Source of the DNA: a virus
Taxonomy: Duplodnaviria > Caudoviricetes
Length of the DNA: 59,894 bases
Virus record (IMG/VR): IMGVR_UViG_3300033388_003934
Location: 1 to 59,894 of that record
Direction: 5' to 3' (one strand)
In this document: positions 41,169 to 59,894 of the stretch, in pieces
Position numbering within the stretch: position 1 is the stretch's first letter
How the letters are laid out: each line of letters starts with the position of its first letter
Translations under genes and position numbers: made by a program
Notes under the pieces: model-generated
The model's input: only the letters and a program-made list of their open reading frames with translations
What the model was told of the DNA's origin: nothing
Database searches by the model: none

Positions 41169-41171
41169 AGA

Positions 41172-41500: not shown

Positions 41501-41540
41501 AAAAAAGAAAAGGAGCTCTCAAAGGCTCCTTTTTCTTTCT
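41501..41540. terminator. Bidirectional intrinsic terminator at the strand switch
   Basis: A-rich run, aaaaggagc-loop-gctcctttt, T-rich run, between convergent gene blocks. Confidence 0.7.
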
Positions 41541-45211: not shown

Positions 45212-45224
45212 AGTATTTAATTAA

Positions 45225-45248
45225 CAAGGCGCACCAAAGTACGCCTTG
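45225..45248 (-). promoter_or_regulatory. Conserved intergenic stem-loop, copy 1
   Basis: CAAGGCGUAC-UUUG-GUGCGCCUUG, 13 nt before ATG 45211. Confidence 0.8.
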
Positions 45249-45253
45249 CAATC

Positions 45254-45895
45254 TTAGAATGGTAAATCATCTCCTTCAGTATCTCCAATAGAGTTATCAT
45301 CATCAAAACCTTTGTCACTTGCTGGCTTGCCTTGTTTGGCAGCAGCTTGTGACGGCTTGTGTTCTGATTCCCAATCAGCTAATCTTTCTTTAAATTGTTC
45401 CATCTTAGCCGGTTTTAAAGGAGTAAAGAAATAAGATTGATTACCTTTAATGGTATCGTGTTCAGCAGCACAAAAACTATATTCAATAGCAGTTTTAATT
45501 ACTGGCTTATTGTAATTGTCTTTGTCTTTACCAACATATTCAATTTTCTTAAATAACGCTTTAACTCTGTTACCTATAACAGATTTAATAGCATCTTCAC
45601 CATCTAAAGTATCATTATAACTTGCATTTGCTAAAAATTCTTTAAGTCTTTTTAACTTAAATTCTCTTGCAGTATCAGATTCTTTACCAGTAATTCTATA
45701 AAATGTAATGGTATTTTCTTTCTCAGATTCTACATCTTGTACTGTAAATTCTATAAAAGGATTTCCTTTGTAGTCTTTTTTACTTTCAGATGTTTGATAT
45801 CCTGTTATCTTAACAATAAAAACACCAGGCTCGTTTATATACTTGCCTGAGTTTTTAAAGTCTTTTACTAAGTTTAATTCATCATTTAGATTCAT
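45254..45895 (-). CDS. ssDNA-binding protein (DUF669/gp2.5-like)
   Basis: PGVFIVKI start, acidic tail ending DDLPF; follows the Sak4-like ATPase. Confidence 0.65.
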   Translation of the reverse strand: MNLNDELNLVKDFKNSGKYINEPGVFIVKITGYQTSESKKDYKGNPFIEFTVQDVESEKENTITFYRITGKESDTAREFKLKRLKEFLANASYNDTLDGEDAIKSVIGNRVKALFKKIEYVGKDKDNYNKPVIKTAIEYSFCAAEHDTIKGNQSYFFTPLKPAKMEQFKERLADWESEHKPSQAAAKQGKPASDKGFDDDNSIGDTEGDDLPF

Positions 45896-46574
45896 CTACT
45901 TTTTCTTTTTTTGGTTTAACTTTCTTTTTATCCCATCCATAATATTTATCAACTTCATTTAATATAGAATTAATATCATTCTCCATTATTGGAGGTAACA
46001 TTTCCATTGGTGATTTAGCTGATATTCTATTATATCCAGGTTGTTTATTTGTAATAAATCGATATTCTTGCTTATCATTAATTTCTTTAGCTTCAGAATA
46101 AACTACTATTACAAATTCTTTTTCTACTTTTTTCTTCCAACTACCATCTACAGCTATAAATCTTTCTTCAACTCCAGAATCTCCTTCAACGAATTGATCT
46201 ATACCTATAAAAATTATGTATTTATCTGTATTCTTAGACATTTCCATAATTTTCTTGATTTCATTCTTATAATAATCCCATACATCAAAACCATCATATA
46301 ATGATTTAGCTTTCATGTAAATAAGCTCTATTAAAGAAGTAAAGCTTTCAATTACTATAATATCAATCTCAGGATTTTCAATTGCTTTAGTTAAAGCAGT
46401 TTTAAATAATTGTAGAGAATTAATTGGTACATTAAGTTTAAATTCAATTCCTTTTCTAAAAGGAAGTGCTTTTTGTTCAGTATTTAGTATTACTGTTCTT
46501 TCAGGTGGTAAATTACGCATAGAGGTACTTTTACCAGTCCCTGATGGGCCGCAAATAAAAATATTCGGTTTCAT
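45882..46574 (-). CDS. Sak4-like AAA_24 ATPase (ssDNA annealing)
   Basis: GPSGTGKSTS Walker A; IIVIES; SAKSPM. Confidence 0.8.
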   Translation of the reverse strand: MKPNIFICGPSGTGKSTSMRNLPPERTVILNTEQKALPFRKGIEFKLNVPINSLQLFKTALTKAIENPEIDIIVIESFTSLIELIYMKAKSLYDGFDVWDYYKNEIKKIMEMSKNTDKYIIFIGIDQFVEGDSGVEERFIAVDGSWKKKVEKEFVIVVYSEAKEINDKQEYRFITNKQPGYNRISAKSPMEMLPPIMENDINSILNEVDKYYGWDKKKVKPKKEKVDESK

Positions 46575-46840
46575 TAATTTTTGTAAATAAGAATTACTAA
46601 TTCATTTTCTATTACTTCTTCGTATTCTTTCTCTTCTTTAGGTACACTTTGAATTTGTTTTGTACCCATGTTAATCATTTCGCAAAATTTGGTTTTACAT
46701 CTATGCATTGTAGTTATTTCTACTAATCTTTGCAATAATGCAAAATCTTTCATAGTTGTATTTTCTTTTAAGCGAATATTAACTTCTTTCAAGTAATTAT
46801 CTTGACGGTATTTGTATTTTGATACTTTTTTAAAGTACAT
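46574..46840 (-). CDS. Hypothetical protein
   Basis: ATG at 46840 (MYFKK) preferred over TTG at 46882. Confidence 0.45.
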   Translation of the reverse strand: MYFKKVSKYKYRQDNYLKEVNIRLKENTTMKDFALLQRLVEITTMHRCKTKFCEMINMGTKQIQSVPKEEKEYEEVIENELVILIYKN

Positions 46841-46883
46841 AGTTTTCAGATTAAATTTAAAAATATACTTTAATCTTTGCAAA

Positions 46884-47132
46884 TTATTTATACTTTTTTT
46901 GGTGTTTTCTTTTTCTTAAATTTATATTCTTGCCCTCTTTGAGCATTTTATTCTTATACCTTTTTAATAGTTTTATTTTGAAATACCCTTTAAGGTTTAT
47001 TTCTTCATTGTTCTGTAAGGCATTACGAAATCCATCAAAGAAATGGAAAACCACAATGTGAACAACAGCTTTATCAATTCCTAATTTCTTAGAAATCTCT
47101 GTTATAATTTTCGAATGCTTGTAATTTTTCAT
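46884..47132 (-). CDS. HU/IHF-like DNA-binding protein
   Basis: IITEISKKLGIDKAVVHIVV..FFD.FRNALQNNEEINLKGYFKI. Confidence 0.7.
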   Translation of the reverse strand: MKNYKHSKIITEISKKLGIDKAVVHIVVFHFFDGFRNALQNNEEINLKGYFKIKLLKRYKNKMLKEGKNINLRKRKHQKKYK

Positions 47133-48486
47133 TTTCTAAAAATTCAATTTCGGATGCAAACTTTGCAAATTGACTTATATACTTAAGGTTTTCATTTCCA
47201 ATACCGGTTGATCTTCCTTTAGCAATAATTATTTCAACATTTTCTATTTCAGGTATTCTTTCTTCAATTTCATAATAAGCTGCTCTATAAACAAACATTA
47301 CCATATCAGCATCTTGCTCAATGGCTCCTGATTCTCTTAAATCAGATAATATTGGTCTTTTGTTAGCTCTTTGTGTTACAGCTCTTGAGATTTGAGATAT
47401 AGCTATAATAACAATTTTTAATTCTCTGCATAACTGCTTGAATGTTCTTGATATTTTTGCTATTTCTTGCTCTCTTGTTCCGTTTCGTTTTGTGTTTGGA
47501 ATAGTAACTAATTGAAGATAATCTACTATAAAAAATTTACAGTTGTTTTTGATATTTAATTTTCTGATTTTATTACATATATGATTTAAATCTCCAGATT
47601 TATCATCAATAAAATAATTTTCATTTTCAAAATATTTAGCAGAATCATAAAAATCATTCCAATCTTTTTCTTTTAATTGCTTTTTTCTGATTTTACCTAA
47701 ATGTATGCATCCATAAGATGCTATCATTCTTGTAAGTAATTGCTCTTTAGACATTTCTAAAGAAAAAATAGCTACAGGTAAGTTTCTAATAATATGATTT
47801 TTAGCAATTTCTAATGCAAATGCAGTTTTACCCATTGATGGAGCTCCAGCAACTATTATTAAGTCTGAAAGTTCCCAACCATATATAAAATTATCTATTT
47901 CCTGAATAAATGTTTTAATATAATTCTTACCATCTTTATCAGACATATTATCTATTACGCCTTGTAAAGTTTTAATAGGGTTATATTCTTCAACATCTGC
48001 ATATTCTTGTAATTCAACAATTTTATCGGTTATTTTAGAGATAATTTCATCTGGATTAACCATATCATTTGAATCTTCGTTAATCTGATTTGCAAGATTT
48101 AGCAATTCTCTTCTTTGAGAATATGCCATTAATAATTTAATATGTGTTTTAATATGTGCATCAGTTGATACTCTGTCTGCAATTTCATTAATATAATCAA
48201 TTAATGTAGCTCCTGTTTTTTCTATAATTCTTGTATTATAACCTTTTGTATTTACTCTATCAGTAACAGTTATAATATCAATTTTTGAATCTTCTGCACA
48301 TTCTTGAATTGCTGTAAAAACATATCTTGAAGCTTCTGTAGAAAATCCTTTTATATTTACCTGGTCTGCAAATTCATAATATCTGTCAGGGTAATTAATA
48401 AAAGTACCTAATACAATTTCTTCTAAATCGTGGTTACTTTGTCCAAAAAATGTACCTTCTTGTAAAAATGTTAATTGGTCGTTCAT
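47089..48486 (-). CDS. dnaB: Replicative DNA helicase
   Basis: AGAPSMGKT, FSLEMS, IVDYLQL, LSDLRESGAIEQDAD. Confidence 0.95.
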   Translation of the reverse strand: MNDQLTFLQEGTFFGQSNHDLEEIVLGTFINYPDRYYEFADQVNIKGFSTEASRYVFTAIQECAEDSKIDIITVTDRVNTKGYNTRIIEKTGATLIDYINEIADRVSTDAHIKTHIKLLMAYSQRRELLNLANQINEDSNDMVNPDEIISKITDKIVELQEYADVEEYNPIKTLQGVIDNMSDKDGKNYIKTFIQEIDNFIYGWELSDLIIVAGAPSMGKTAFALEIAKNHIIRNLPVAIFSLEMSKEQLLTRMIASYGCIHLGKIRKKQLKEKDWNDFYDSAKYFENENYFIDDKSGDLNHICNKIRKLNIKNNCKFFIVDYLQLVTIPNTKRNGTREQEIAKISRTFKQLCRELKIVIIAISQISRAVTQRANKRPILSDLRESGAIEQDADMVMFVYRAAYYEIEERIPEIENVEIIIAKGRSTGIGNENLKYISQFAKFASEIEFLENEKLQAFENYNRDF

Positions 48487-48498
48487 ATTATTTTAATT

Positions 48499-48528
48499 TC
48501 AAGGCACACCAAAGATGGCGTGCCCTGA
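48499..48528 (-). promoter_or_regulatory. Conserved intergenic stem-loop, copy 2 (before dnaB)
   Basis: UCAGGGCACGCCA-UCUU-UGGUGUGCCUUGA, 12 nt before ATG 48486. Confidence 0.8.
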
Positions 48529-48532
48529 TTAA

Positions 48533-48964
48533 TTAGAAATTTTTAAAGATTTTTTCCATTATATTATCTGTAAAAAATCCTTGATCTTCTGCATCTTCTG
48601 AAGTTGGCAACATATTATACAGTTCTTTAACTTCAATATACTTATCTTTTAATATAGCTTCATAACAAGATAAGTGCAATGCTTTAATAGGAAATTTATT
48701 GTCAAAATATTCAGTTATTGCTTGACTTCTTTCAATATCTATATTTTTAGGAGAATCTTTATATATTTCATTTATAATATCAGTATCTCCATTATATTTT
48801 GCTAAAATATAAATATCTTTCCCATTTATCTCTCCATACCCATTATATGATTTGTCTATAAATACATTGTTAGGTGTAACTAAGACTATTCCATCATTAT
48901 ATTGAGTATGAGCATTTTTGATACTCTCTTTACAATGAGAGCAATTCCAGCTAAAAAATCCCAT
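48533..48964 (-). CDS. Hypothetical phage protein (CxxC...HxxC, possible Zn binding)
   Basis: MGFFSWNCSHC...YNGYG...HLSC...DQGFF. Confidence 0.6.
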   Translation of the reverse strand: MGFFSWNCSHCKESIKNAHTQYNDGIVLVTPNNVFIDKSYNGYGEINGKDIYILAKYNGDTDIINEIYKDSPKNIDIERSQAITEYFDNKFPIKALHLSCYEAILKDKYIEVKELYNMLPTSEDAEDQGFFTDNIMEKIFKNF

Positions 48965-50070
48965 TATATTGTAACTAATAGTTTACCTGCGATATCTTCA
49001 ATATCTCTTTTTCTTCTTGTATTACCTGATTGAACACCTACTTGAGTCATTGCTTGAGTTAGTTTCCAAATAGTATTTCTACCTTGAACACCATGTTCTG
49101 GGTTGTTATCAGAAAGTATATCAGTTAAAGATTTAACTTCATCTTTTCTCATACCCATTTTAGGAAGTTTTTTGATTTCAGTATCAATATTTACTAATCT
49201 GGATCCTGCTCTTTCAATATTTGAAACTTCGTGTAATAGAAATTCAGTATCAAAAGCACTATTAACAATATCTCTTACTAAAGAAGCTTGTGTTTCAGTA
49301 TCTAATTTATAAGTTTCATTACTTAAAATTAAATTATCAGGTAATTTTTTACCTAAATGAACTTGTCTAATAAGATTATCTCTTGTCATTCCATTTAAAC
49401 AAACTACTTGCATAGAATATGATTGTACTCTTAAAGCTCCATCTCCATAATCAGAGTTAGAAATTCTAAGTCCAAATACCATATATGTTACACCATTATA
49501 CTGTGTGTGTACAGGTACAACTTCTGGTAAAATAAATTCTATGTAAGTTCTTGTTTCATCATAACAGCAATCCATTAATTGTGCACCTTGATTCACACAA
49601 GCATTAAAAAATTCAGCATATATTTCAGCTGTATTTAATCTTCTATACTTGTCTGATAATACACCTTTAACTTGATTATCAAGAGTTCTTATAAGAAATC
49701 TTTTAGGTTCATGATTAATGGTATGTTCATTTAACATTTGAGTAGCTAAATCTCTTTCCCATTGATTTGTACCAGTAGCTAAAGATTTTAGATAGGTTGT
49801 TGGTATTCCTAATTTATCTCCTAATTGACCTACAGCATGTCTATGAATTTTTTGATAGTTTCCATCAATATTCATTTGCACAGATCCATTAGCGTAAAAT
49901 AAATTATAGTTTGTCATACCACCAATTGGCATAATCAAATCTTCAATACCGTTACTTTCTTCTTGAATTTTTCTAATAGTTGGCATTTTATCAGATGCAT
50001 CACTTAATACTCTGGTAATTTTTTCTTGCAGAATACTCTGCTCAGTTGGATTAATTGTTTGTATTTCCAT
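48964..50070 (-). CDS. DUF932-like protein
   Basis: LSDKYRRLN, ISNSDYGDGAL, VVCLNGM. Confidence 0.7.
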   Translation of the reverse strand: MEIQTINPTEQSILQEKITRVLSDASDKMPTIRKIQEESNGIEDLIMPIGGMTNYNLFYANGSVQMNIDGNYQKIHRHAVGQLGDKLGIPTTYLKSLATGTNQWERDLATQMLNEHTINHEPKRFLIRTLDNQVKGVLSDKYRRLNTAEIYAEFFNACVNQGAQLMDCCYDETRTYIEFILPEVVPVHTQYNGVTYMVFGLRISNSDYGDGALRVQSYSMQVVCLNGMTRDNLIRQVHLGKKLPDNLILSNETYKLDTETQASLVRDIVNSAFDTEFLLHEVSNIERAGSRLVNIDTEIKKLPKMGMRKDEVKSLTDILSDNNPEHGVQGRNTIWKLTQAMTQVGVQSGNTRRKRDIEDIAGKLLVTI

Positions 50071-50084
50071 AATATATTATTAAA

Positions 50085-50112
50085 ACAAAGAGCACCAAAG
50101 AGGTGCCCTTGC
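50085..50112 (-). promoter_or_regulatory. Conserved intergenic stem-loop, copy 3
   Basis: GCAAGGGCACC-UCUUU-GGUGCUCUUUGU before ATG 50070. Confidence 0.8.
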
Positions 50113-50113
50113 T

Positions 50114-50878
50114 TTAAAGTTTGATAGGATTTACAGCCATTGTATCTAAATTCATAAAAACACCATGTTGAGCGGTTCTATAATTTCTAAATAACTTCCA
50201 TAATAAATTCATACCAAATTCTGCTAATGTTGAATTAACTAATAAATCTTGTTTATTTAAAGCTTCTAAAGTACTACAGCTTGGAGTATCTTCATTTTCT
50301 TTTAATTTACCAATAGTTTTTTCCATTTCTATTATAGTAGGCATTGTAGGGTTATTAGCACCTTCAGGTTGGTTTATATGACCCATAGTTCCTAAAATTG
50401 CTTGTCCAAAATTATCTCCATTTCCAAAATCTAACCAATAATGGCAAGTATTATATGGACTTCTTGTTCTCAAATAGCATTTAGCTTTTTGAATGTCTTT
50501 TCTAATTTGAACATTATCTACACATGTTATTATAATATTAAATGGTATGCTTGGGTTATCAAAATCAATTTCAAACTTTCCTGGAATACTATCCCAATTA
50601 GTACTATAAAATCTGTTAATTCTTTCTATTGTTACATCTGCTTTAAATCTGTCTAAATCTGTTTCAGAGAATAATTGTCTACCAATATTTGCTCTTGAAA
50701 CTTTATCAGGATCATAGCATCTAACAAAAAATCCTGGGTGACCTAAGCCAATTAATCCAGCATTCATTCTTCCTAAAATAGCTAACACTGAACTACCAGT
50801 ACCTCCAGCTCCTATAACTGCTATAGTTACTTTATGTACTGGTGCTATCAATGTTTGCTCCATATAATGATATTTCAT
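50114..50878 (-). CDS. PRTRC system ThiF-family (E1-like) activating enzyme
   Basis: VIGAGGTGS, DPDKVSRANIGRQ, IITCVDN, YWLDFGN, PSCSTLEALNKQDLLVN. Confidence 0.9.
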   Translation of the reverse strand: MKYHYMEQTLIAPVHKVTIAVIGAGGTGSSVLAILGRMNAGLIGLGHPGFFVRCYDPDKVSRANIGRQLFSETDLDRFKADVTIERINRFYSTNWDSIPGKFEIDFDNPSIPFNIIITCVDNVQIRKDIQKAKCYLRTRSPYNTCHYWLDFGNGDNFGQAILGTMGHINQPEGANNPTMPTIIEMEKTIGKLKENEDTPSCSTLEALNKQDLLVNSTLAEFGMNLLWKLFRNYRTAQHGVFMNLDTMAVNPIKL

Positions 50879-51555
50879 ATTATATCTTTTAGCTTTTTTT
50901 TACGATAATTTGTTAAGTTTTTAGAATCTCCAAAACCATTTTTATCCCAAATAACATTAATATTGTTTTTGAAATTCTGATGGTTTAAATGTGTAAATTT
51001 TGATCTAAAAAATAGTTGTTCTATATGTTGTATCAATTTTTCTAAATTGCATATATTCCAATCTATACTTGCATTTCCCATACATACTTTACCATCATTA
51101 TATATATTATGAAATGGTGCATAAAAAAGATTAGTTTCTAATCCTTTAAAACATTTATAGGCATATACAGATAGCTTAGTATCTTTTATTTTAAATATTA
51201 AATTAGGTACACATTTAAATTCCTTAGAAATATTATGTTTTTCATCAAAATTCAAATTAATATGACTCTTTTTAAAAGTCCATATTAAATTTAATTCTTG
51301 ATTATTTGTATTAAAATAAATAACATTCTTAGGTATTAATCCTTTAAATTCATATTTACTTTTATCTAAACCTTCTATTTCTTTTAACAGTTTTCCTAAA
51401 ATTTTGATTCGTGCTGGTTTACCAGGTCCAAATGTAAATTTGTTTTCTTGTAATTCTCTAATTGCGTGTTCTTCTATATAAGTGTTAACTGTTTTTTCAG
51501 TTTTATACACAACTAAACTCATTACGGGTTTCATATACTCGGGAATTTCATTCAT
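50875..51555 (-). CDS. PRTRC system protein B (prokaryotic E2 family D)
   Basis: LFYAPFHNIYNDGKVCMGN...FFRSKFTH, with the putative catalytic Cys. Confidence 0.85.
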   Translation of the reverse strand: MNEIPEYMKPVMSLVVYKTEKTVNTYIEEHAIRELQENKFTFGPGKPARIKILGKLLKEIEGLDKSKYEFKGLIPKNVIYFNTNNQELNLIWTFKKSHINLNFDEKHNISKEFKCVPNLIFKIKDTKLSVYAYKCFKGLETNLFYAPFHNIYNDGKVCMGNASIDWNICNLEKLIQHIEQLFFRSKFTHLNHQNFKNNINVIWDKNGFGDSKNLTNYRKKKLKDII

Positions 51556-52573
51556 ATATTAAATACATACTTGCTAACCAATTTCTATAATTTTCAGGAA
51601 ATTCATCCTTTTTGTTTTTATTAAAAGGATTTTTAGCTGTTATTTGACATTCTTTATAAAATGGTAATATATCATAGTTTTGATAGTAATGATTTGCTTG
51701 TTCTTCATATCTATTAAAGACAACATCAGCTTCATCTACATTCCATAATAAATTAGCATAATATTCTGGTCCAAACCAAAAATCATCATCTTCATTAACG
51801 ATAGTTTTATAAGGTATATAATTATTAAAATCTTCTGTAATAATTTCAAACCCTTCTTCTATCCAAGCTAATATTTTCTGATCTTTATAGTTGTTAATTT
51901 TTATTTTACTGAGCATTTCTCTTAAAGATTTCTCAGTATGATTAGATTTTTGAAAATTAATTTTTTGCTCTAAAGGCATTACGGTTTTTTTATAAAATTT
52001 AATCGTTTCAAAAGCTTTTTTAATTTCATCTTTATCTAAATCTTCTACCCAGTCATTAATATAATCTTCACATATATCTACAATATAATCCATACCATGT
52101 AGAAAAGGAATATGAAAATGTTGTACTAAATAGGAGAAATACTCCCAAATGAAATTTTGCCAATCTTTTTTAAGACCCATAATCCAATATAATTCACTAC
52201 AAAATCCATTGTAATTTGTAGTGTTATCTTCAGCTGTCCATAATTCATAATCTCCATCATCATTTTTAGAAATTTTCCAGATATCTAAATCTTTTGTTAT
52301 TTCTTTTAATAGATAATGATTGAAATCATATATATTCATATTAGGCACATCATCTTTGATATAGTGTTTACCTATAGGATATAAAAAATTAAGTAACTTA
52401 GTAGGTTCCTCTTTAAAGATTAATTCAGATTTAGCTTTTAATATAGGGGTTTTAAGAGTGAAGAAGGAGTTTTCATTCTTTCTTCCATAATGACATTTAC
52501 TTTGTCTTTTTCTTCTTGCAAAATAATTATTGCGATACTGTGCCTCTGTTGAGGATAACATTTCTTTTTGCAT
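51548..52573 (-). CDS. PRTRC system protein F-like
   Basis: Position between protein C and protein B; acidic/aromatic helical protein. Confidence 0.55.
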   Translation of the reverse strand: MQKEMLSSTEAQYRNNYFARRKRQSKCHYGRKNENSFFTLKTPILKAKSELIFKEEPTKLLNFLYPIGKHYIKDDVPNMNIYDFNHYLLKEITKDLDIWKISKNDDGDYELWTAEDNTTNYNGFCSELYWIMGLKKDWQNFIWEYFSYLVQHFHIPFLHGMDYIVDICEDYINDWVEDLDKDEIKKAFETIKFYKKTVMPLEQKINFQKSNHTEKSLREMLSKIKINNYKDQKILAWIEEGFEIITEDFNNYIPYKTIVNEDDDFWFGPEYYANLLWNVDEADVVFNRYEEQANHYYQNYDILPFYKECQITAKNPFNKNKKDEFPENYRNWLASMYLIYE

Positions 52574-52608
52574 TTAGTCAGTTTTTTAAATAAATCTGTA
52601 TGTTTCAT

Positions 52609-52641
52609 AATCAGGGAACAACAAAGCGTTGCTCCCTAATT
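52609..52641 (-). promoter_or_regulatory. Conserved intergenic stem-loop, copy 4 (inside the PRTRC cluster)
   Basis: AAUUAGGGAGCAAC-GCUUU-GUUGUUCCCUGAUU. Confidence 0.8.
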
Positions 52642-52642
52642 A

Positions 52643-52870
52643 TTACTTCTTTGCAAAAAGATATTTCTTTAAATTTATGTCTTTACACATAGTAGTTTTA
52701 GTTGATAATTTTACTTTTTCACAACATAAATAACTTGTGTTCTTTCCGTAATTATCTGATACATAAGTGTCAAAATCGAATCTTGCAAATTCTGCATATC
52801 TTGCAAATTCTATAGATTCTATAACAACACTTGCAGTAGCATATTCAAATATGATAATGTATTGTATCAT
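52643..52870 (-). CDS. Hypothetical protein inserted in the PRTRC cluster
   Basis: 75 aa; ATGA-coupled; internal EFAR duplication. Confidence 0.5.
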   Translation of the reverse strand: MIQYIIIFEYATASVVIESIEFARYAEFARFDFDTYVSDNYGKNTSYLCCEKVKLSTKTTMCKDINLKKYLFAKK

Positions 52871-53240: not shown

Positions 53241-54073
53241 TAGTATGTAAATGTTGATTGTGAACTATTAAATCTATTATCTCTTTCTTGTCTTATCATT
53301 TCTTCTTGTTCATCAGAAATTGGTTGAATATCATTGCCTACAGAATTATTTTCTTGAATAGGTGGAGTTTTATATTCTTCAATATTAGCTTCATCTACTC
53401 TTGCTTCAAATTCTTTATCTTGCCTATGCATTTCTTCATCTACATTTTCCATTTCTTTTTGAAACTTTGGTGTTCCATCAGGATAAGTAGATTGAACTGG
53501 TTCAGCTTTTGGTACATTAGGTAATGGTTGTATTTCTTCAACAACAGGTTCTTTAGGTGCTTCAACTTGACTAAACATATCTGGTTGAGAGTTATTTGCA
53601 TCACATTCTTTAACAAGTTGTGTAGCTTTACTAAACTTAGGATCATCTTTAAGAATTTGATTACAGATAAATTTACATTTATCATATTCTTTTTCATCCC
53701 AATATTTTTGAGCTTTCTCAAGTTGTTTAATTGAATGTTCTCTAACTTTCTTTTGCTTATCTTTTTCTGCTTTAGCAATTTCAGATTCTTCTTTAGCTTT
53801 TTCAACAGCTTTTTCGTGCTCATGCATATTTCTTAATAATCCACTTGATTTTTCTAAAGGAGTTTTTAGAAGCTGAAAAAATTGAGCATCAAATTCATCT
53901 ACAGTTCCAGTAAATAATATTGGTTGTAAATAATCTTTTGCATTGTCTTTGACTTTCTTTAATGGATTAACAGATACACATAATTCAGTTTCATTATTCT
54001 TTCGAATAGTAACATTAAGTGTTTCTGATACCAATAATAAGTCATTAATTTGTTTAAAAAAGGTTGTATTCAT
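53240..54073 (-). CDS. PRTRC system protein E
   Basis: FFKQI...LCVSV...LQPILFTGTVDEFDAQFF...P; coiled coil, TPR-like helices, QPDMF, acidic tail. Confidence 0.85.
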   Translation of the reverse strand: MNTTFFKQINDLLLVSETLNVTIRKNNETELCVSVNPLKKVKDNAKDYLQPILFTGTVDEFDAQFFQLLKTPLEKSSGLLRNMHEHEKAVEKAKEESEIAKAEKDKQKKVREHSIKQLEKAQKYWDEKEYDKCKFICNQILKDDPKFSKATQLVKECDANNSQPDMFSQVEAPKEPVVEEIQPLPNVPKAEPVQSTYPDGTPKFQKEMENVDEEMHRQDKEFEARVDEANIEEYKTPPIQENNSVGNDIQPISDEQEEMIRQERDNRFNSSQSTFTY

Positions 54074-54089
54074 ATATATATATTTTTAA

Positions 54090-54121
54090 AACTTAACCCA
54101 CAACAAAGTGTGAGTTAAGTT
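54090..54121 (-). promoter_or_regulatory. Conserved intergenic stem-loop, copy 5 (before PRTRC E)
   Basis: AACUUAACUCACA-CUUUGU-UGUGGGUUAAGUU. Confidence 0.8.
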
Positions 54122-54137
54122 GTATGCGTGCATACTT

Positions 54138-54515
54138 TTAATCAAATAGATTTCTATTCAAATTATTTCTTTGTTTAGTTAAAGCAGATGCTACAGAAAA
54201 TATAGCTTTTGCTCTTTTTTCTAAAGACTCTATGTACCTGTTAATATCTTCGACATTATTAGTTACATAATATCCTTTAGAACTACTTACTAAACAACTA
54301 ACTTTATCATATAATCTAATATGATTTATAATCTTCCTTATACGAGCTCCATTAACATCTTTATAATTAGATTTTAATTTTCTACACATTTCAGCATTGG
54401 TAATAGCATTACTTTTACCTATTCTTCTTTGTAGTCCTCTAATCATTGCAGGCATTAATATATTTTTCTCATAATCATTTAAGGGTGCTGTATGATCTTC
54501 AAATCCTGGTATCAT
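54138..54515 (-). CDS. Winged-HTH DNA-binding protein
   Basis: NAITNAEM...ARIRKIINHIR...LVSSSKGYY; likely ATG at 54515. Confidence 0.65.
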   Translation of the reverse strand: MIPGFEDHTAPLNDYEKNILMPAMIRGLQRRIGKSNAITNAEMCRKLKSNYKDVNGARIRKIINHIRLYDKVSCLVSSSKGYYVTNNVEDINRYIESLEKRAKAIFSVASALTKQRNNLNRNLFD

Positions 54516-54711
54516 TTCTTCTCCATTTTTCAATATCATCAACATTATCTCCTAATATCTCTTTACTTGCTCCCCATTGTTCCCAAGATTCATAGCATTT
54601 GCATCCATAAATAGTATGGATTTTATTGCTTTCATCTTTGCGAATAAACACTATTTCAGCGTGTTTTTCTTTTTTTGTGGGTTTTCTAATTTCAATAAGC
54701 TTTGTTGCCAT
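54499..54711 (-). CDS. Hypothetical protein
   Basis: 70-aa ORF (SWEQWGA). Confidence 0.55.
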   Translation of the reverse strand: MATKLIEIRKPTKKEKHAEIVFIRKDESNKIHTIYGCKCYESWEQWGASKEILGDNVDDIEKWRRNDTRI

Positions 54712-54713
54712 AA

Positions 54714-55001
54714 TTATGATATTTTAGGAAATGTTAAAGATTTATTATCACGAGATTGACCAAACAATGCTCCAGCATCATTACCTTCATCATCACTTGA
54801 TGGAAATAATAATGAACCATCACTTAATTCTAATACAATAGATTTATTGTGCCAGCCCATACCTTTCATTTCTTGATCAGTTAAATATCTTACATCTACA
54901 ATAGTTCTTCCTTCCAGATGTTTTCTTGCGTAATTTTCCCAATAATTATTATTTTCCATCTTTCTTTTTTTTCTGCTTTCCAAAATCTCTTCGGTCAACA
55001 A
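54714..55001 (-). CDS. Hypothetical phage protein
   Basis: LEGRTIVDVRYL...PSSDDEGNDAGAL; true start may be the internal MENNN. Confidence 0.6.
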   Translation of the reverse strand: MLTEEILESRKKRKMENNNYWENYARKHLEGRTIVDVRYLTDQEMKGMGWHNKSIVLELSDGSLLFPSSDDEGNDAGALFGQSRDNKSLTFPKIS

Positions 55002-55073
55002 ATTCTTGTTCTTTCTTAGTCATACTTGTGTATGTACCAGTTTTCTCGTAAAAGTCGCTTAAACGACCTGTAT

Positions 55074-55313
55074 TCATTTTTCTTGCCATTTTGCTTTTTC
55101 TTTTTTAGCTATTTCGAAGATATCATCTTCTGTATCTTCAATATTATTAACTCTTTTTTTAATATCTTCTTTAACTCTATATCTTCTTTCTTCTTCTGCA
55201 CAAGCTTGACAAGATAAATATGCTTCATAATCGCTTCCTACATATAGATCGCAAGTATGTCCTGTTCCACCTGTTGCAGCTAATAAAAATGTATCTTCTT
55301 CAAATTGACCCAT
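55074..55313 (-). CDS. Hypothetical protein (HxC...CxxC)
   Basis: 79-aa ORF. Confidence 0.5.
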   Translation of the reverse strand: MGQFEEDTFLLAATGGTGHTCDLYVGSDYEAYLSCQACAEEERRYRVKEDIKKRVNNIEDTEDDIFEIAKKEKAKWQEK

Positions 55314-55413
55314 TATTAAAACTTTAGAATAATTAGTATAAAAAGTAAAAGAATAAGCAAAGTGTTAACAATGCTTATTCTTAATGCTTTTCTTGCTGTA
55401 TAGCTACCTCTTC

Positions 55414-55614
55414 TCATGGTTGAACATTTGATGAGGTTTGTAATTTAATTTCTTTTTTATCGTAGTTATTAACTAAAGGTGCTACTTTATGTCCAATTCC
55501 ACTATTATATTTAGTAGAACAGCTTGTAGTAGCCATAATTGATAAAATAATTCCTGCTATCCATAGTACTGATACTATTCCAGCAAATACTGATTGTAAT
55601 GATAAGTTTTTCAT
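55414..55614 (-). CDS. Small membrane protein / lipoprotein
   Basis: Hydrophobic N-terminus ending TTSC. Confidence 0.5.
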   Translation of the reverse strand: MKNLSLQSVFAGIVSVLWIAGIILSIMATTSCSTKYNSGIGHKVAPLVNNYDKKEIKLQTSSNVQP

Positions 55615-55631
55615 TTGTTATAGTTTTTAAA

Positions 55632-55651
55632 ATTCAAACCACAACAAAGAA
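55632..55651 (-). promoter_or_regulatory. Half copy of the stem-loop element (3' arm only)
   Basis: UUCUUUGUUGUGGUUUGAAU with no complementary 5' arm. Confidence 0.55.
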
Positions 55652-55954
55652 TTATCTGCTTTTTAAATCTGGAGGAAAATAGTTATCAGGATCAATAATA
55701 TTAATTTGTCCTAATCTATACATTTTGCCTACTACTAAACTATCAGTAGTTATTATAATTTCAGCTTTTTTAGTTTTTGGATTATGTAAATGATACATAT
55801 TTACACGCACTTCTTGTACGACCTGGTATTTAGAACAACCTATAAATAGAAATATTAATAATATTGTAAACAGCTTATTTTCCATATATTTTCTTAAAAA
55901 GAATAACAAAACTAAGAGAGTAACCCATATTAGTATTGTTATAAAAGTAGTCAT
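55652..55954 (-). CDS. Putative lipoprotein
   Basis: N-terminal TM, then internal MENKLFTILLIFLFIG-C lipobox. Confidence 0.5.
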   Translation of the reverse strand: MTTFITILIWVTLLVLLFFLRKYMENKLFTILLIFLFIGCSKYQVVQEVRVNMYHLHNPKTKKAEIIITTDSLVVGKMYRLGQINIIDPDNYFPPDLKSR

Positions 55955-55968
55955 AATTTATGATACGG

Positions 55969-55998
55969 AAAAAAAAGGGAGCTGTTACACTCCCTTTT
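55969..55998 (-). terminator. Intrinsic terminator
   Basis: Minus strand GGGAG-UGUAACAG-CUCCC followed by U8. Confidence 0.8.
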
Positions 55999-56266
55999 AT
56001 GTTGAACAAATCAACGCACAAATTAGGCTGAATAGTTGGTAGTTATCACTTTTACTATTCATTACAGGTGTTATAAACCACTCGACCTACCTAAATTAAT
56101 ATGTAATAGAGTTATTCGGGTACTATCTTTCAAGCTACACTATATTCACCTCCATCCCCCATGAAGTTATCGTAGTTGGATTATTACATTTTTAGTTTTA
56201 AGAGCTATTCTTTTAGAATGTAACATAAACACCCCTGTCCATCTAACAAACTATAGGAAATAGCTC

Positions 56267-56581
56267 TTAATCTTTTGGTTTAATATCAAGATCATCTAAT
56301 GTTTTAACATCAAATCCAAGCATATTAGTTAAAGTACTATCAAATTTATCTTTCCACTTTTTATCATCTCTATCTTCTGAATTATCTTCTTCTAATAAAG
56401 CTTCTAAAGTTCTAAATTTTTTAATAATTTCTTCTAATATAACTGTTAGAGAAGAAGCTCTCTTGACATAATAATATTTATCTGACCCATCATTTGGTTT
56501 TGCGTCTAATTCTTTTAATCTTGTTTCAGCATGGTCTATACACCATCCTAAATTGTCTTGTAAATTTTCTTTTGTTATCAT
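56267..56581 (-). CDS. Hypothetical protein
   Basis: 104 aa; preceded by a stem-loop element. Confidence 0.6.
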   Translation of the reverse strand: MITKENLQDNLGWCIDHAETRLKELDAKPNDGSDKYYYVKRASSLTVILEEIIKKFRTLEALLEEDNSEDRDDKKWKDKFDSTLTNMLGFDVKTLDDLDIKPKD

Positions 56582-56606
56582 ATATTTAAAATTATATTGT
56601 AAAACT

Positions 56607-56645
56607 AAAGGACAACAACGGAATTTTTTTACGCTGTTGTCCTTT
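56607..56645 (-). promoter_or_regulatory. Conserved intergenic stem-loop, variant copy
   Basis: AAAGGACAACAGCG-11 nt loop-CGUUGUUGUCCUUU. Confidence 0.7.
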
Positions 56646-56727
56646 TTATCCTATAATGCTCTAATTGGATTATAGTTTTTGCAAATTTGTGCTTAAGATT
56701 GGTTCTTTAGAAATAGAACTATGTATG

Positions 56728-57048
56728 TTATTTTATTTCACAAGTGTATTCGATTTTTAAGTTAATACTATCTAATGAGCTGTAATAATTCTTCTTATAA
56801 AAGAATAATAGCTTATTATTTACAATAATAGGTTTAGCTAATACTTTCTCTCCATTAAGATTGATCATTGCTTTTTTTATTCTCCCTTTATTATCCAGTT
56901 TCATCTGGATAGAGTTTAAAACACAATGTCTTTTCAATAGTGAATATAGCTTTCCGGCTATCTTATAGTCGTTTTTTTTAAGCTTAAGTGAAATAGTTTC
57001 CAGGCTTTTTAATTGGTTTTCCATCAATAAGTGCGCTAATTTTGCCAT
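56728..57048 (-). CDS. Hypothetical basic protein
   Basis: 106-aa ORF. Confidence 0.5.
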   Translation of the reverse strand: MAKLAHLLMENQLKSLETISLKLKKNDYKIAGKLYSLLKRHCVLNSIQMKLDNKGRIKKAMINLNGEKVLAKPIIVNNKLLFFYKKNYYSSLDSINLKIEYTCEIK

Positions 57049-57111
57049 AATTTAATAATTTATAGGTTTAAAATATAATTGTAAAAAATGCAGATTATTA
57101 TATAAATAAAA

Positions 57112-57142
57112 AGCAAGACACAACAAAGTGTTGCGACTTGCT
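57112..57142 (-). promoter_or_regulatory. Conserved intergenic stem-loop (terminator-like copy)
   Basis: AGCAAGUCGCAACA-CUU-UGUUGUGUCUUGCU followed by UUUUAUUU. Confidence 0.75.
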
Positions 57143-57164
57143 CTAAAACGCACATTATGTTTTA

Positions 57165-57476
57165 TCATTCTATCTTACCTTTTTTAATAAATTTCTGCAC
57201 TTCAAATAGTAGTATTTTATCGTTTACTATTTGTTTTAATCTCCATTTTCTAAAATCGATAAATAGCAAAAATGTTAGCTTGATTACACTGTTATCAAAA
57301 TAATGCTCCATTTTAATATCTAATTTCTTTAATTTCATTAACTCAAGTTTTAAATGATACAAGAACATATTATACTCTTCTATAATATTTAGCATGTAGT
57401 AAAAACGAAATAATAAAAGTAGAAATATCGGTATAAATGAAATAAGTAATATTCCTGGGATCTCAATTGTTTCCAT
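57165..57476 (-). CDS. Hypothetical membrane protein
   Basis: N-terminal TM. Confidence 0.5.
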   Translation of the reverse strand: METIEIPGILLISFIPIFLLLLFRFYYMLNIIEEYNMFLYHLKLELMKLKKLDIKMEHYFDNSVIKLTFLLFIDFRKWRLKQIVNDKILLFEVQKFIKKGKIE

Positions 57477-57640
57477 ATTAGATTTTTAGGGGTTTATAAT
57501 AATTTGATTTTCTATTTACAATTTACAAAAAATATATCCTCGATCAGCCCGCCTGTAACATAAGAGGTTTATTCACGAGCCTATTGGCCTGCGAATGAAA
57601 GCGTGTGATGGAAGTCCATTTTAAAATCATAAAAAAATAA

Positions 57641-57656
57641 TCATAACAAAGTATGA
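57641..57656 (-). promoter_or_regulatory. Minimal copy of the stem-loop element
   Basis: UCAUA-CUUUGU-UAUGA, 10 nt before an ATG at 57630. Confidence 0.45.
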
Positions 57657-57661
57657 CGCAT

Positions 57662-57695
57662 AAAAAAGGGTACACATTTAGTAATGCATACCCTT
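57662..57695 (-). terminator. Intrinsic terminator
   Basis: Minus strand AAGGGUAUGCAUU-ACUA-AAUGUGUACCCUU-UUUU after ORF 57717-58526. Confidence 0.75.
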
Positions 57696-57716
57696 ATTAT
57701 TGAATTTAAAATTAAC

Positions 57717-58526
57717 CTATGATAGATTATCTTTTTTATAGGATTTAATTTTCTGACCTTTGTAGTTACTATTTTCGTCAACACCTACTTCAAGTATTAC
57801 AAACTTATTTACATAAGGTTGCATTAACTCTACAATAGCATTTACGAATGAAGGAACTTTATCAGAATTAATTCCCATAGCGATGTAATATTCTTTAGAA
57901 ATTACCTCTTTTTCTACACCATTTTCATCTTGTACTTTGTGAAACACATCTTTAGATGGATTCTTTATTAAGTCGCAATCAGCGTCTAATGTAGAACGAA
58001 TTTCTTGAAGTCTTAATGCTTTTAATTTAGCATATCTATCTCCAATACTTTTACCTTCAGGTATTTTTCCATTAGCAAAATCTTGTTCAGCTTGAGCATA
58101 TAATGCTTGACAATCCAATTCCCAATACTTTAATGTTTGTACTGTTTGTGGCTCTTCGCCTGGATTAGCAGTTTGCTGAACAGAAGTCATAATTGGATAA
58201 GTGATTTCAGGAATTTTACCTTCAGAAATTGCTTTAGAGAAAAACAATTCATCAGTTGCAATACTTCTCATAAGGTATCTCAACCTTTGAAAAGAATTTT
58301 GTAAATTTCTGTAATTTGAAGTTCTTAAATAATCATCAATACCCATTTCAGGATTTAGATTATTTACGAAATCAAATTTAACACTTAAACTCCCATTCTT
58401 CTTATTAGAATGGCTTTCAATTGACTTTAAAAAATGTTTACCATTTTTGGTTTCACGAATGTTCTTTAAATTTTCAGACATTCCGCCTAAAGTTAAATTG
58501 TTTAAGAAATCTTGTTCTGTATTCAT
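57717..58526 (-). CDS. Hypothetical protein
   Basis: 269 aa; stem-loop upstream, terminator downstream. Confidence 0.7.
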   Translation of the reverse strand: MNTEQDFLNNLTLGGMSENLKNIRETKNGKHFLKSIESHSNKKNGSLSVKFDFVNNLNPEMGIDDYLRTSNYRNLQNSFQRLRYLMRSIATDELFFSKAISEGKIPEITYPIMTSVQQTANPGEEPQTVQTLKYWELDCQALYAQAEQDFANGKIPEGKSIGDRYAKLKALRLQEIRSTLDADCDLIKNPSKDVFHKVQDENGVEKEVISKEYYIAMGINSDKVPSFVNAIVELMQPYVNKFVILEVGVDENSNYKGQKIKSYKKDNLS

Positions 58527-58548
58527 AATATATAATTTTATTGATTAA

Positions 58549-58584
58549 ACAAGGAACAACAAAGCAATGCTTGTTATCCCTTGT
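58549..58584 (-). promoter_or_regulatory. Conserved intergenic stem-loop
   Basis: ACAAGGGAUAACAAGC-AUU-GCUUUGUUGUUCCUUGU before ATG 58526. Confidence 0.8.
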
Positions 58585-58590
58585 GATTTC

Positions 58591-59001
58591 TTAAAAATAT
58601 GTTTCTTCTTCATAATCATAGTTAATGCATTTACATTTCAATTTTTGTGCTTTAACTTTACTATTATGTTCTTGTACCCATTTATCATATATAGCATACT
58701 TTCTATTAATATTTTTCAAAATATTATAATTGTTATAATATTTAGATTTTTTAATAAATATATTATCTCTTCTATGCTGATATATAGATTTCATTATTCT
58801 ATTAACAAACTTTTTATCTATAACTGCATAAAGAGCATATAATTTAAATACTTTATAATGTTTATTGGTTGATTTGACTTTCTTTACATATAAGTAACTC
58901 ATATCATAACCAAAACACCAATAAACATTATTATTTAAAAGATGCTCAACTTGAAAAGGTTCTTCAAGAACTCTAATTTTAGAAAATTTTATTTTTCTCA
59001 T
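58591..59001 (-). CDS. Hypothetical basic protein
   Basis: ATG at 59001 (MRKIKF); the track start at 59037 lies inside the stem-loop. Confidence 0.5.
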   Translation of the reverse strand: MRKIKFSKIRVLEEPFQVEHLLNNNVYWCFGYDMSYLYVKKVKSTNKHYKVFKLYALYAVIDKKFVNRIMKSIYQHRRDNIFIKKSKYYNNYNILKNINRKYAIYDKWVQEHNSKVKAQKLKCKCINYDYEEETYF

Positions 59002-59017
59002 AGCTAATAATTTAAAA

Positions 59018-59045
59018 TTCAACCAACACCGAAGCATTGGCTGAA
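59018..59045 (-). promoter_or_regulatory. Conserved intergenic stem-loop with cUUCGg tetraloop
   Basis: UUCAGCCAAUGC-UUCG-GUGUUGGUUGAA; three G-U pairs. Confidence 0.85.
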
Positions 59046-59049
59046 AACA

Positions 59050-59151
59050 TTATTGTGTTAAATATGCATATAACACAACAGAAATAACAGTTATAATGAA
59101 TATAACCATTGCCTCTGCACCTGCTGTTTCAACTGGAGTTTTCTTTTTCAT
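59050..59151 (-). CDS. 33-aa membrane peptide (not in ORF track)
   Basis: MKKKTPVETAGAEAMVIFIITVISVVLYAYLTQ*. Confidence 0.5.
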   Translation of the reverse strand: MKKKTPVETAGAEAMVIFIITVISVVLYAYLTQ

Positions 59152-59161
59152 AACATTAATT

Positions 59162-59434
59162 TTAAGAGATTAGATACCTTTGTCTTTTACTTACACAATC
59201 AAAAATGCATAATATCTTTTTGACAACAACTTTAGTCATAATATTATCAGGATTTTTGATAAGTAAAGTGCAATTATTATTACAGCTTTCATCTACATAT
59301 TTAATCTTATGTTTATCTAACATAATCTTAATAATATTGTAAACTTCTTCAGCATAATTTATTGCACAAAATTCATCTTCATTACCTCTTATCATTAACT
59401 TATGAGGGTAAATCTTTAAATCGAAAGTTTTCAT
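59162..59434 (-). CDS. Hypothetical protein
   Basis: ATG at 59434 (MKTFDL); the track start at 59455 lies inside the stem-loop. Confidence 0.55.
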   Translation of the reverse strand: MKTFDLKIYPHKLMIRGNEDEFCAINYAEEVYNIIKIMLDKHKIKYVDESCNNNCTLLIKNPDNIMTKVVVKKILCIFDCVSKRQRYLIS

Positions 59435-59449
59435 AATTATAATTTTTAA

Positions 59450-59480
59450 ATTCAAGGAACAGCGAAGCGATCCCTTGAAT
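59450..59480 (-). promoter_or_regulatory. Conserved intergenic stem-loop
   Basis: AUUCAAGGGAUCGC-UUC-GCUGUUCCUUGAAU before ATG 59434. Confidence 0.8.
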
Positions 59481-59485
59481 AAAAA

Positions 59486-59770
59486 TTAGTTTAGATTAAA
59501 TAACTCATTACCCATACAATCATATTGTTGTATTTTATAATGTAAATCATTATCATTCTTTAATGCATATTCTCTAATTAATTCCTTATTAGCATATGCA
59601 TTATGATACTTAAAGATTATTGCTGGGTCTATATCCTTTTGATACATAAAGTTTTTAATCTCTTTAAATGTCATAAATGGATTCATATCAGAATAATCTT
59701 TCCATAGCTCGTTTTCTATTTCATTAATAGTTTTACAAGCTGTCGTGTAGTAATCGAAATAATTTCTCAT
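59486..59770 (-). CDS. Hypothetical protein
   Basis: 94 aa; flanked by stem-loop elements. Confidence 0.6.
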   Translation of the reverse strand: MRNYFDYYTTACKTINEIENELWKDYSDMNPFMTFKEIKNFMYQKDIDPAIIFKYHNAYANKELIREYALKNDNDLHYKIQQYDCMGNELFNLN

Positions 59771-59786
59771 AATAGTATAATTTTAA

Positions 59787-59814
59787 ATTCAAGGCACAAT
59801 TAAGTGCCCTGAAT
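59787..59814 (-). promoter_or_regulatory. Conserved intergenic stem-loop
   Basis: AUUCAGGGCAC-UUAAUU-GUGCCUUGAAU before ATG 59770. Confidence 0.8.
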
Positions 59815-59894
59815 AAAAATGGTTTTCTCATTATATGCTTACCAATAGCATATAAGATATTATAACTTGATGTAGCTATAATTACAGACTTCTA

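Follow-up and report, generated by a model that had tools for sequence, protein, structure and literature searches.

The early-gene RNase III sites of phage T7 are longer irregular helices with an internal loop, extend over about two helical turns and are cut by the host RNase III. Cluster K mycobacteriophages carry start-associated sequences, some with extended inverted repeats; we know of no covariation evidence that these form an RNA fold. The promoters of phage N4 consist of a perfect stem of 5–7 bp with a 3-nt loop. Phage N4 injects its virion RNA polymerase, and its early hairpin promoters lie on the template strand (PMC13434306). In T4-type phages, conserved cassettes of a promoter plus a stem-loop, known as PeSLs, have been described; promoter and stem-loop frequently overlap, and each was demonstrated to be active (PMC2839356). 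The present analysis concerns a family of hairpins in the virus record IMGVR_UViG_3300033388_003934, where they stand at the junctions of early and replication genes. The whole record, a linear IMG/VR entry of 59,894 bp with an estimated completeness of 86%, is referred to as the window.

Judging from Pfam matches to the crassvirus muzzle and tail ring proteins, the window is from an uncultured marine crAss-like phage. Its structural genes occupy the plus strand from 1 to ~40.2 kb, and the minus strand from 41.5 to 59.8 kb carries replication and recombination genes together with many small open reading frames (ORFs) without matches. The hairpins of this minus-strand block are RNA structures of the gene-sense strand, and they overlap a 15-nt core, CTTYGKTGTNNYTTG, whose sequence is kept wherever it is placed in the fold. 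A tentative reading, to which a probability of about 0.4 is given, is that the hairpin attenuates or ends the upstream message and that the overlapping core marks the start of the next early gene.

Hairpins and a 15-nt core at the early gene junctions

The motif CTTYGNTGT occurs 14 times in the window against 2.97 expected, and none of 100 shuffled sequences reached 14. An earlier note on this DNA had listed 13 minus-strand hairpins with a shared 3' side and had proposed that a covariance model be built. The first model (R1) was made from seven seeds of one geometry, three from the window and four from relatives, and was run with filters off. In the window it gave 35 matches at E ≤ 10. The best ten (E 6.3e-9 to 0.012; three seeds and seven non-seeds) are all minus-strand sites of the early block, in the interval 45210-59816. 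They are followed by a plus-strand match at 8832 (E 0.13) and a canonical terminator at 41494 on the minus strand (E 0.16). The second model (R2) was built from 33 aligned matches, ten of them window sites; only its result for site 50085, which was outside the training set and is now accepted, constitutes new information. As the earlier note had stated, no copy was found in the plus-strand late region by scanning the window with either model. When the whole window was compared with Rfam 15, the sole match at E ≤ 1 (E 0.78) fell at 35768-35912 of the plus strand and is unrelated to the hairpin sites.

Taken together, folding and the two models make 11 of the 13 listed sites solid, including the copy at 55632, and the view that they form one family with a shared 3' side is supported. 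Site 56607 is marginal (E 0.52 with R2); its orthologue at 1232-1266 of the related contig L007 has a compensated stem and an identical 3' flank. Site 57641, which has a 4-bp stem and directly follows a canonical U-tract terminator, is not supported. At E ≤ 5, R2 found neither this site nor a hairpin at 55349. The latter is an extra intergenic hairpin (55349-55382, minus strand; -13.8 kcal/mol) with CTTTG in its 3' arm, conserved in L007 and L008 and accepted by neither model.

Eleven intergenic hairpins fold as RNA on the minus strand with -14.1 to -24.0 kcal/mol. Their stems are 10–16 bp long (16 with A-U extensions) and contain wobbles, bulges and mismatches; the loops have 3–11 nt, and the elements measure 24–42 nt overall. 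In a model-fitted alignment (A3; 22 distinct rows, 219 stem cells), which leans towards the model, 97.3% of the cells are paired, compared with 40–46% in six controls with slid partners. Both sides had changed in 8 of 10 pairs, so the two arms do covary as was claimed, and the covariation score was reached by none of 500 shuffles. An independent alignment of the helicase junction (48494..48535; five sequences) with MAFFT and RNAalifold gave 12 pairs, three of them compensated, and breaks arose only from gaps. A compensated pair, G-C to A-T, is also present in the orthologue of hairpin 45219..45253 in L004.

Among the 219 stem cells, 37 hold G-U or U-G and six are unpaired. The wobbles exist on the sense strand only, as the same positions read C-A on the template strand, and because of this the fold is taken to be selected on the transcript. 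The folding energies agree with the earlier note on this point: as RNA, the plus strand reached the threshold of -12 kcal/mol at only 5 of 11 places (-13.1 to -16.2 kcal/mol). With DNA parameters too, 9 of 10 sites folded better on the sense strand (-5.5 to -11.9 kcal/mol) than on the other strand (-2.9 to -8.6 kcal/mol). UUCG-type loops closed by C-G, which lend extra stability to RNA and not to DNA, were found in five distinct sites across lineages; the cUUCGg loop that had been noticed at 59018 is real. These loops, the bulges and the loops of up to 11 nt suggest a transcript fold rather than a cruciform. The element is an RNA hairpin of the sense strand, formed at the transcript level.

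The core was compared in 21 sites aligned at the stem foot, 11 from the window and 10 from a related record of 43,071 bp (G001). The consensus reads C T T Y G K T G T N N Y T T G. All 21 sites have T-14 and G-8; C-15, T-13, T-9 and T-2 occur in 20/21, and G-11 and G-1 in 19/21; the positions of the 5' arm hold little information (0.15–1.07 bits). The core stays constant while the register of the stem shifts by up to ~6 nt. In some copies it makes up a 6-nt loop plus the 3' arm, and in others it is partly paired. Two copies lack an upstream arm and pair downstream. One of these is site 55632, which the earlier note had regarded as half a hairpin: its core pairs with downstream bases that include the ATG at 55614, and in the orthologue (L007 1993-2036) the hairpin with the downstream partner is kept although the pairs have changed. 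The other is a core-like copy at ~115 in the GC-richer, ~370-nt leader of G001 (z -3.3). The first gene of the G001 block, with no gene upstream of it, is preceded by a core copy that has only a weak 7-bp hairpin. Wobble rules favour the conservation of a G/U-rich arm, but they leave the conserved unpaired positions and the armless copies unexplained. At the level of conservation, the linear core is a second layer that is independent of the fold. The G001 leader itself (L096 1-370, at the contig end) is a gene-free stretch at the outer end of the early block with a stable pair of hairpins, and may represent the end of the genome that is first to enter the cell.

Between the stem foot and the ATG there are 11–22 nt in most sites; one site has 2 nt and another ~64 nt. 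Positions 0 and +1 past the stem are mostly A/W, in the context G A / W U U U, with T at +2 in 16/21. Late genes have similar A/U-rich leaders without hairpins. The AAUUUAAAA tail, which the earlier note had counted as a feature of the family, turned out to be the generic A/U-rich leader of this phage, of which the late genes have an equivalent; the A/T-rich run past the stem is best read as a generic translation start region. It was correctly noted that most sites have no U tract, and a terminator scan flagged only 50085, 59018 and 57112. Four canonical U-tract terminators elsewhere in the window all lack the core, which suggests that the family has a role apart from ordinary termination.

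The shortest spacing belongs to the ATG at 52608, which is 2 nt past the core and within the stem foot of hairpin 52607..52643; G001 and G003 have an equal 2-nt spacing. In the window this gene (51548-52608, minus strand) is split: a 56-aa ORF at 52438-52608 overlaps one of 341 aa that is read in a different frame. In L007, a single ORF of ~350–360 aa starts where the window gene 51548-52608 is split. The split is a frameshift, either real or an assembly error.

A search with the helicase found eight viral contigs of 75–88% identity (L001–L008) and one metagenome contig of 75% identity (L098). They represent four lineages besides the window, and all carry the family on the helicase-sense strand, at the same junctions. 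At E ≤ 0.05 there are 33 matches in the window and L001–L008, and four sense matches in L098. Whole-record scans gave sense hits from 653 to 16382 in G001 and from 37142 to 51894 in a second relative of 51,972 bp (G002), and the antisense hits in both were solely echoes of palindromic sites. One hairpin, 59782..59819, is identical in G001 (784-825). The family is confined to the early/replication block in all three records, as had been proposed, and the notion of a phage-wide code has to be narrowed to ~15–17 kb in the window and the two relatives.

Outside this clade, 71 other helicase-bearing phage loci (899,943 bases) gave no family hit at E ≤ 1. The first 50 kb of the crAss-like phage phi14:2 yielded no family member with R1 (best E 0.91), and its intergenic gaps contain a few hairpins, which are unrelated to the family. 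A 20-nt degenerate pattern matched 15 stretches in viral contigs; scanning of ten loci that were new gave a single hit (E 0.089), and the pattern matches in these ten were judged to be chance.

Two differences in gene content between the window and G001 are bounded by family hairpins, which agrees with the suggestion of cassette boundaries made in the earlier note. Where the window has hairpin 59450, G001 has a hairpin, a 152-aa ORF, ~100 nt of noncoding DNA and a hairpin. For the 136-aa ORF that separates hairpins 59018 and 58549, no counterpart was found in the 24.5 kb of G001 that were compared, and in its place G001 has an unrelated 72-aa ORF beside hairpins. G001 runs ~0.8 kb past the end of the window. 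Recombination at hairpin copies appears evident from these comparisons; as the copies are alike, they would also serve as recombination points at which early gene cassettes are swapped among relatives. An ORF for a 32-aa hydrophobic peptide (59050-59148, minus strand) is 75% identical in G001; a family hairpin follows it in the window and precedes it in G001.

Possible roles of the hairpin and the core

The favoured reading has two layers. The hairpin, carried on the transcript of the upstream gene, would attenuate or end this message or cap its 3' end. The core would act as a linear signal for an enzyme or factor that serves the early genes, and the injected virion RNA polymerase is the most plausible candidate for this reader. 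The outcome would be a new 5' end just past the stem, which feeds the short A/U-rich leader of the next gene. The upstream arm would be whatever sequence pairs with the fixed core; it would drift by transitions to G-U, and the position of the loop would float, because the arm merely has to pair. Such a scheme explains why the register floats and the 5' arm drifts, why some copies are armless and why an ATG can lie in the stem foot. As to the last point, the ATG at 52608 lies inside the foot of a stem of -22.5 kcal/mol in three lineages; without a 5' end made at this place by initiation or cleavage, translation from it would be difficult. The reading fits the PeSL precedent and also the phi14:2 preprint, in which the replication module belongs to the early class and is transcribed by the virion polymerase (gp66), and this enzyme transcribes single-stranded or denatured DNA far better than duplex. 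A more specific proposal is that the core is the early gene-start signal of a two-barrel virion RNA polymerase of the crAss type, read on the template strand as the mirror of N4. Here the hairpin of the sense strand or of the nascent RNA would keep the template core single-stranded for an enzyme that is unable to open the duplex, and the partner of the core could then stand upstream or downstream of it, as is observed. This narrower version is doubtful.

Several points weigh against the two-layer reading. The promoter activity of the core is pure inference from sequence. Sigma-70-like sites are not enriched in the window (119 against 132.6 expected in shuffles), and a host-type promoter was rejected on this ground; nor was an arrangement of the Bacteroidota type (-33 TTTG / -7 TAnnTTTG) seen by eye in the aligned sites. 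According to the preprint, the early transcripts of phi14:2 share no common upstream motif, and no family member was obtained there with R1; if the core does serve as a signal for the polymerase, this signal is clade-specific. The G001 copy at 653-696 is followed by TTTT and then by ~90 nt without a gene, which fits a plain terminator. Pairing rules alone could produce part of the conservation of the 3' arm, since transitions are neutral in an A/C-rich arm and not in a G/U-rich one. Finally, one promoter per gene, every 300–1500 bp, is lavish for an injected polymerase of few copies.

A close rival, possible though less probable, is that the elements are processing or stabilising sites in a long polycistronic early transcript. 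An endoribonuclease of the host or the phage would cut next to the stem foot, in A/U-rich single-stranded RNA; a protective 3' hairpin would then remain on the upstream message, and the downstream message would begin at the leader, as with the RNase III sites of T7, so that the 5' ends would be identical to those of the favoured reading. The selection of the structure on the sense strand and the recurrence of UUCG-type loops in five distinct sites across lineages are consistent with this, and the ATG that abuts the stem at 52608 requires a new 5' end. Stems of 10–16 bp are short for bacterial RNase III, which counts against that enzyme. In single-stranded RNA, RNase E is reported to prefer sites with a uridine at the second nucleotide after the cleavage point (PMC5222698), and this preference fits the T at +2 in the context past the stem. 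However, A/U context is generic in this phage, which weakens the fit, and the copies with downstream pairing or weak hairpins would present another substrate. No RNase or RNA-binding domain was found in 31 minus-strand ORFs, nor in a PHROG scan of 30 ORFs, and the absence of the element from late messages would be left unexplained.

It is unlikely, to a similar degree in each case, that the family is an operator for an RNA-binding regulator or a set of plain attenuators. The regulator, encoded by the phage, would bind the loop and the 3' side and either shut early translation or modify the polymerase, by analogy with T4 RegA or with lambda N and its nut sites. One side of a covarying stem is indeed conserved in sequence, the stem ends 11–22 nt from the ATG in most sites, and the element is limited to the early class. 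A single binding geometry is nevertheless awkward to reconcile with a floating register between core and stem and with loops that range from a rigid UUCG to 11 nt; the distance to the ATG varies from 2 to ~64 nt, and no candidate protein was found in the same 31 minus-strand ORFs or the PHROG scan of 30. Plain attenuators or weak terminators would need no sequence-specific reader, and their likeness would come from common descent and gene conversion. Such a view gains from the terminator-like flags of three family sites, from the TTTT tail of G001 653 with no gene behind it, from wobble rules that by themselves favour a conserved G/U-rich arm and from the evident recombination at copies. Yet a stable hairpin with an immediate U tract, as expected of an intrinsic terminator, was flagged in only 3 of 11 family sites. 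The bases at 0 and +1 past the stem are mostly A/W, which is the worst place to break a U tract, and the phage uses canonical U-tract terminators elsewhere. In addition, the unpaired C-15, T-14 and T-13 are kept in 20–21 of 21 sites while other stem positions have turned over fully, and the core is kept where an upstream gene is lacking.

Very unlikely is a DNA hairpin promoter that serves the virion polymerase, be it of the N4 kind, as the earlier note had suggested, with a template-strand hairpin, or a mirror version in which the sense strand folds and the template core stays single-stranded for a polymerase that needs single-stranded DNA. Conserved inverted repeats stand before early genes, near the end that probably enters first, and with the mirror version it is understandable that the core can find its partner on either side. 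UUCG stabilises RNA and not DNA, however, and the stems of N4 are short and perfect with 3-nt loops. The N4-type version is disfavoured by the wobbles and the folding energies, which favour the non-template strand: at 9 of 10 sites, DNA parameters give the template strand the less stable hairpin. Extrusion from duplex would be costly, given 17% wobble pairs, bulges and loops of up to 11 nt. What speaks for a promoter of this kind is the strong preference of phi14:2 gp66 for single-stranded or denatured DNA, as given in the preprint.

Scarcely credible is a cluster of integron-like attC recombination sites that lacks an integrase and marks mobile gene cassettes. Such sites measure 57 nt or more and have R and L boxes and extrahelical bases, compared with 24–42 nt and one continuous stem here. 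The single orientation, the one site per junction and the cassette differences at the sites are shared, and the stem foot RYYYAAG...CTTRRRY is one base from the attC boxes; GTTRRRY is fully matched by two copies, 59018 and G001 2079. In one report, the boxes read R'' RYYYAAC and R' G|TTRRRY, the bottom strand is used, and clusters are known from virulent marine phages (PMC9892861). Here, by contrast, the top (sense) strand folds better, the base before TT (position -4) is C in 12/21 and T in 5/21 sites and not G, and no integrase was found among the 59 ORFs scanned. A double-stranded operator for a dimeric protein was rejected, because the spacing of the outer half-sites varies and the pairs include wobble.

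Gene context and feature coordinates

The positions of the hairpins, the non-member terminators and selected genes are collected in Table 1. The products of the minus-strand block comprise a DnaB-like helicase, a Sak4-like protein, a NinB-like protein, a PD-(D/E)XK exonuclease, an HNH endonuclease, an HU-like protein, a protein with a DnaA C-terminal domain and a ThiF/E2/ubiquitin-like/PRTRC_E set. A small gene for the HNH endonuclease (43980-44261, minus strand) lies among the recombination genes. The ThiF, E2, ubiquitin-like and PRTRC_E genes form a full prokaryotic ubiquitin-like set inside the early/replication block (50114-54073, minus strand), an unusual cargo for a crAss-like phage.

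Table 1. Positions of family hairpins, terminators and genes in the window (E values refer to models R1 and R2)
Feature	Position	Strand	Remarks
Family hairpin, 10-bp stem, 4-nt loop	45219..45253	-	Between 213-aa ORF and NinB-like gene; -18.8 kcal/mol; R1 seed, E 6.3e-9; ATG 12 nt past stem
Family hairpin, 12-bp stem	48494..48535	-	Upstream of DnaB-like helicase gene; -24.0 kcal/mol; R1 E 1.4e-4, non-seed
Family hairpin 50085, one bulge, T-rich tail	50080..50117	-	Upstream of 368-aa ORF; -20.0 kcal/mol; R1 E 0.56, R2 E 0.0011; flagged terminator-like
Family hairpin, 16-bp extended stem	52607..52643	-	-22.5 kcal/mol; R1 E 0.0029
Family hairpin, 13-bp stem, 6-nt loop	54090..54122	-	Upstream of PRTRC_E-like gene; R1 seed, E 3.6e-8
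'Half' site 55632	55610..55651	-	Core 55635-55649 abuts upstream stop codon; -13.5 kcal/mol; R1 E 0.0032
Marginal member 56607, 14-bp stem, 11-nt loop	56607..56645	-	3' arm CGTTGTTGTCCTTT; -19.5 kcal/mol; R2 E 0.52
Family hairpin 57112, then T run	57110..57144	-	-18.4 kcal/mol; R1 E 0.012; terminator-like; next ATG ~64 nt off
Unsupported site 57641	57623..57665	-	Degenerate core, 4-bp stem, -3.8 kcal/mol; R1 E 4.3
Family hairpin	58549..58584	-	Upstream of 269-aa ORF; -18.3 kcal/mol; R1 E 0.0026
Family hairpin, cUUCGg loop	59018..59045	-	After 32-aa membrane-peptide ORF, before 136-aa ORF absent from G001; -14.1 kcal/mol; R1 seed, E 1.1e-8
Family hairpin 59450	59445..59485	-	-14.8 kcal/mol; R1 E 4.8e-5
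Family hairpin, divergent loop TTAATT	59782..59819	-	First copy in window; -17.9 kcal/mol; R1 E 0.0099
Canonical hairpin + U-tract terminator, non-member	57660..57700	-	-16.6 kcal/mol
Canonical hairpin + U-tract terminator, non-member	55973..55998	-	Closes ~300-nt gene-free stretch
Two-way canonical terminator	41501..41541	-	Junction of minus-strand and plus-strand blocks
Canonical hairpin + U-tract terminator	2668-2699	+	
Tail ring protein 1	3920-5107	+	Pfam
Crassvirus muzzle protein	5107-9510	+	Pfam E 3.6e-100
3123-aa ORF	17146-26517	+	Downstream of muzzle and cargo genes; DADHDGD motif at residue 2377
ThiF-type E1	50114-50878	-	
E2 family D	50875-51555	-	
Prok_Ub	53037-53240	-	
PRTRC_E	53240-54073	-	

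A virion RNA polymerase of the crAss (gp66) type is the probable product of the 3123-aa ORF. Searches of Pfam, PHROG and the sequences of the PDB gave no match for it. By BLASTP, it aligns to phi14:2 gp66 in weak, collinear segments of E 0.7–1.8 each, none of which is significant alone, and these align its DADHDGD with the catalytic DFDID of gp66. The ORF has glycine in the fourth position of this motif, as in cellular polymerases; according to the phi14:2 preprint, all crAss-like polymerases known at that time have I or V there.

Two gene-free, GC-richer stretches occur in the early block on the minus strand, 55955-56266, which terminates in a canonical terminator, and 57477-57660. Neither has an Rfam match, and both recall the abundant early non-coding RNAs of phi14:2. 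A GC-rich noncoding motif, GTTACAG ... GGCTGATCG, is found at ~57535-57560 of the window (minus strand) and at ~1675-1725 of L096, in the extra cassette of G001.

Among phage records, no match to 45000-59894 was obtained by megablast, and tblastn with the helicase gave only matches of <60% identity to unrelated phages. When sequencing runs near the window DNA were sought, the only study found carries the label hydrothermal vent metagenome; no RNA run containing this DNA was found, and three RNA runs that were checked contained next to no words of it.

Comparison with known systems

With N4, the window shares conserved inverted repeats before early genes and an injected polymerase that prefers single-stranded templates. 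In N4, however, a T7-like enzyme reads three template-strand copies whose stems are short and perfect and whose loops have 3 nt, whereas here there are at least 11 copies with longer, imperfect stems, a non-template fold and a polymerase that is probably of the two-barrel type. In both strand and geometry the element departs from N4, with the sense fold better in 9 of 10 sites, stems of 10–16 bp and loops of 3–11 nt.

The RNase III sites of T7 resemble the family in that similar hairpins stand at nearly every early junction, act on the transcript and leave a 3' hairpin on the upstream message. They differ in that the stems here are simple and of 10–16 bp with a fixed 15-nt core, and cleavage is only putative. 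The start-associated sequences of Cluster K likewise comprise an asymmetric conserved motif, sometimes with an adjacent inverted repeat, before a subset of start codons; sequence, host group and the genes served are other ones.

The likeness to the PeSLs of T4-type phages is closer. In two reports on these (PMC2839356, PMC4122927), a repeated conserved element fills the gap from stop to start between small early genes, its stem-loop overlaps a start signal, its orientation follows transcription, and its copies bound cassettes that differ between close relatives. The 11 window copies are all intergenic and sense-oriented, as are those in the relatives; cassette differences of this kind are seen against G001, and the overlapping start signal would be the core. 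PeSLs carry a textbook sigma-70 promoter and a Shine-Dalgarno sequence, and G/C runs of variable sequence form their stems; in the present family the conserved part lies inside the stem, and a promoter of the host type could not be recognised. The phage, too, is of another group, crAss-like with an injected polymerase, and promoter and terminator activities of its element are putative. By analogy, it is most like a PeSL in its presumed working but lacks the host promoter that defines one.

CrAss-like phages are among the most abundant known, and all carry an injected RNA polymerase. The only studied case, phi14:2, gave no recognisable early signal. In the present clade, nearly every early junction has a compact element that covaries and follows a sharp consensus, and its natural variants (strong hairpin, weak hairpin, downstream partner) could be used to probe how early messages start, stop or are processed. 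It also provides a PeSL-like route for the swapping of early cassettes outside the T4 group. Should the element act in processing or attenuation only, crAss-like phages would still have gained a new RNA family, though one of an ordinary kind. In kind, the family belongs with the repeated regulatory stem-loop cassettes at the early junctions of lytic phages; the crAss-like clade is a new setting for them.

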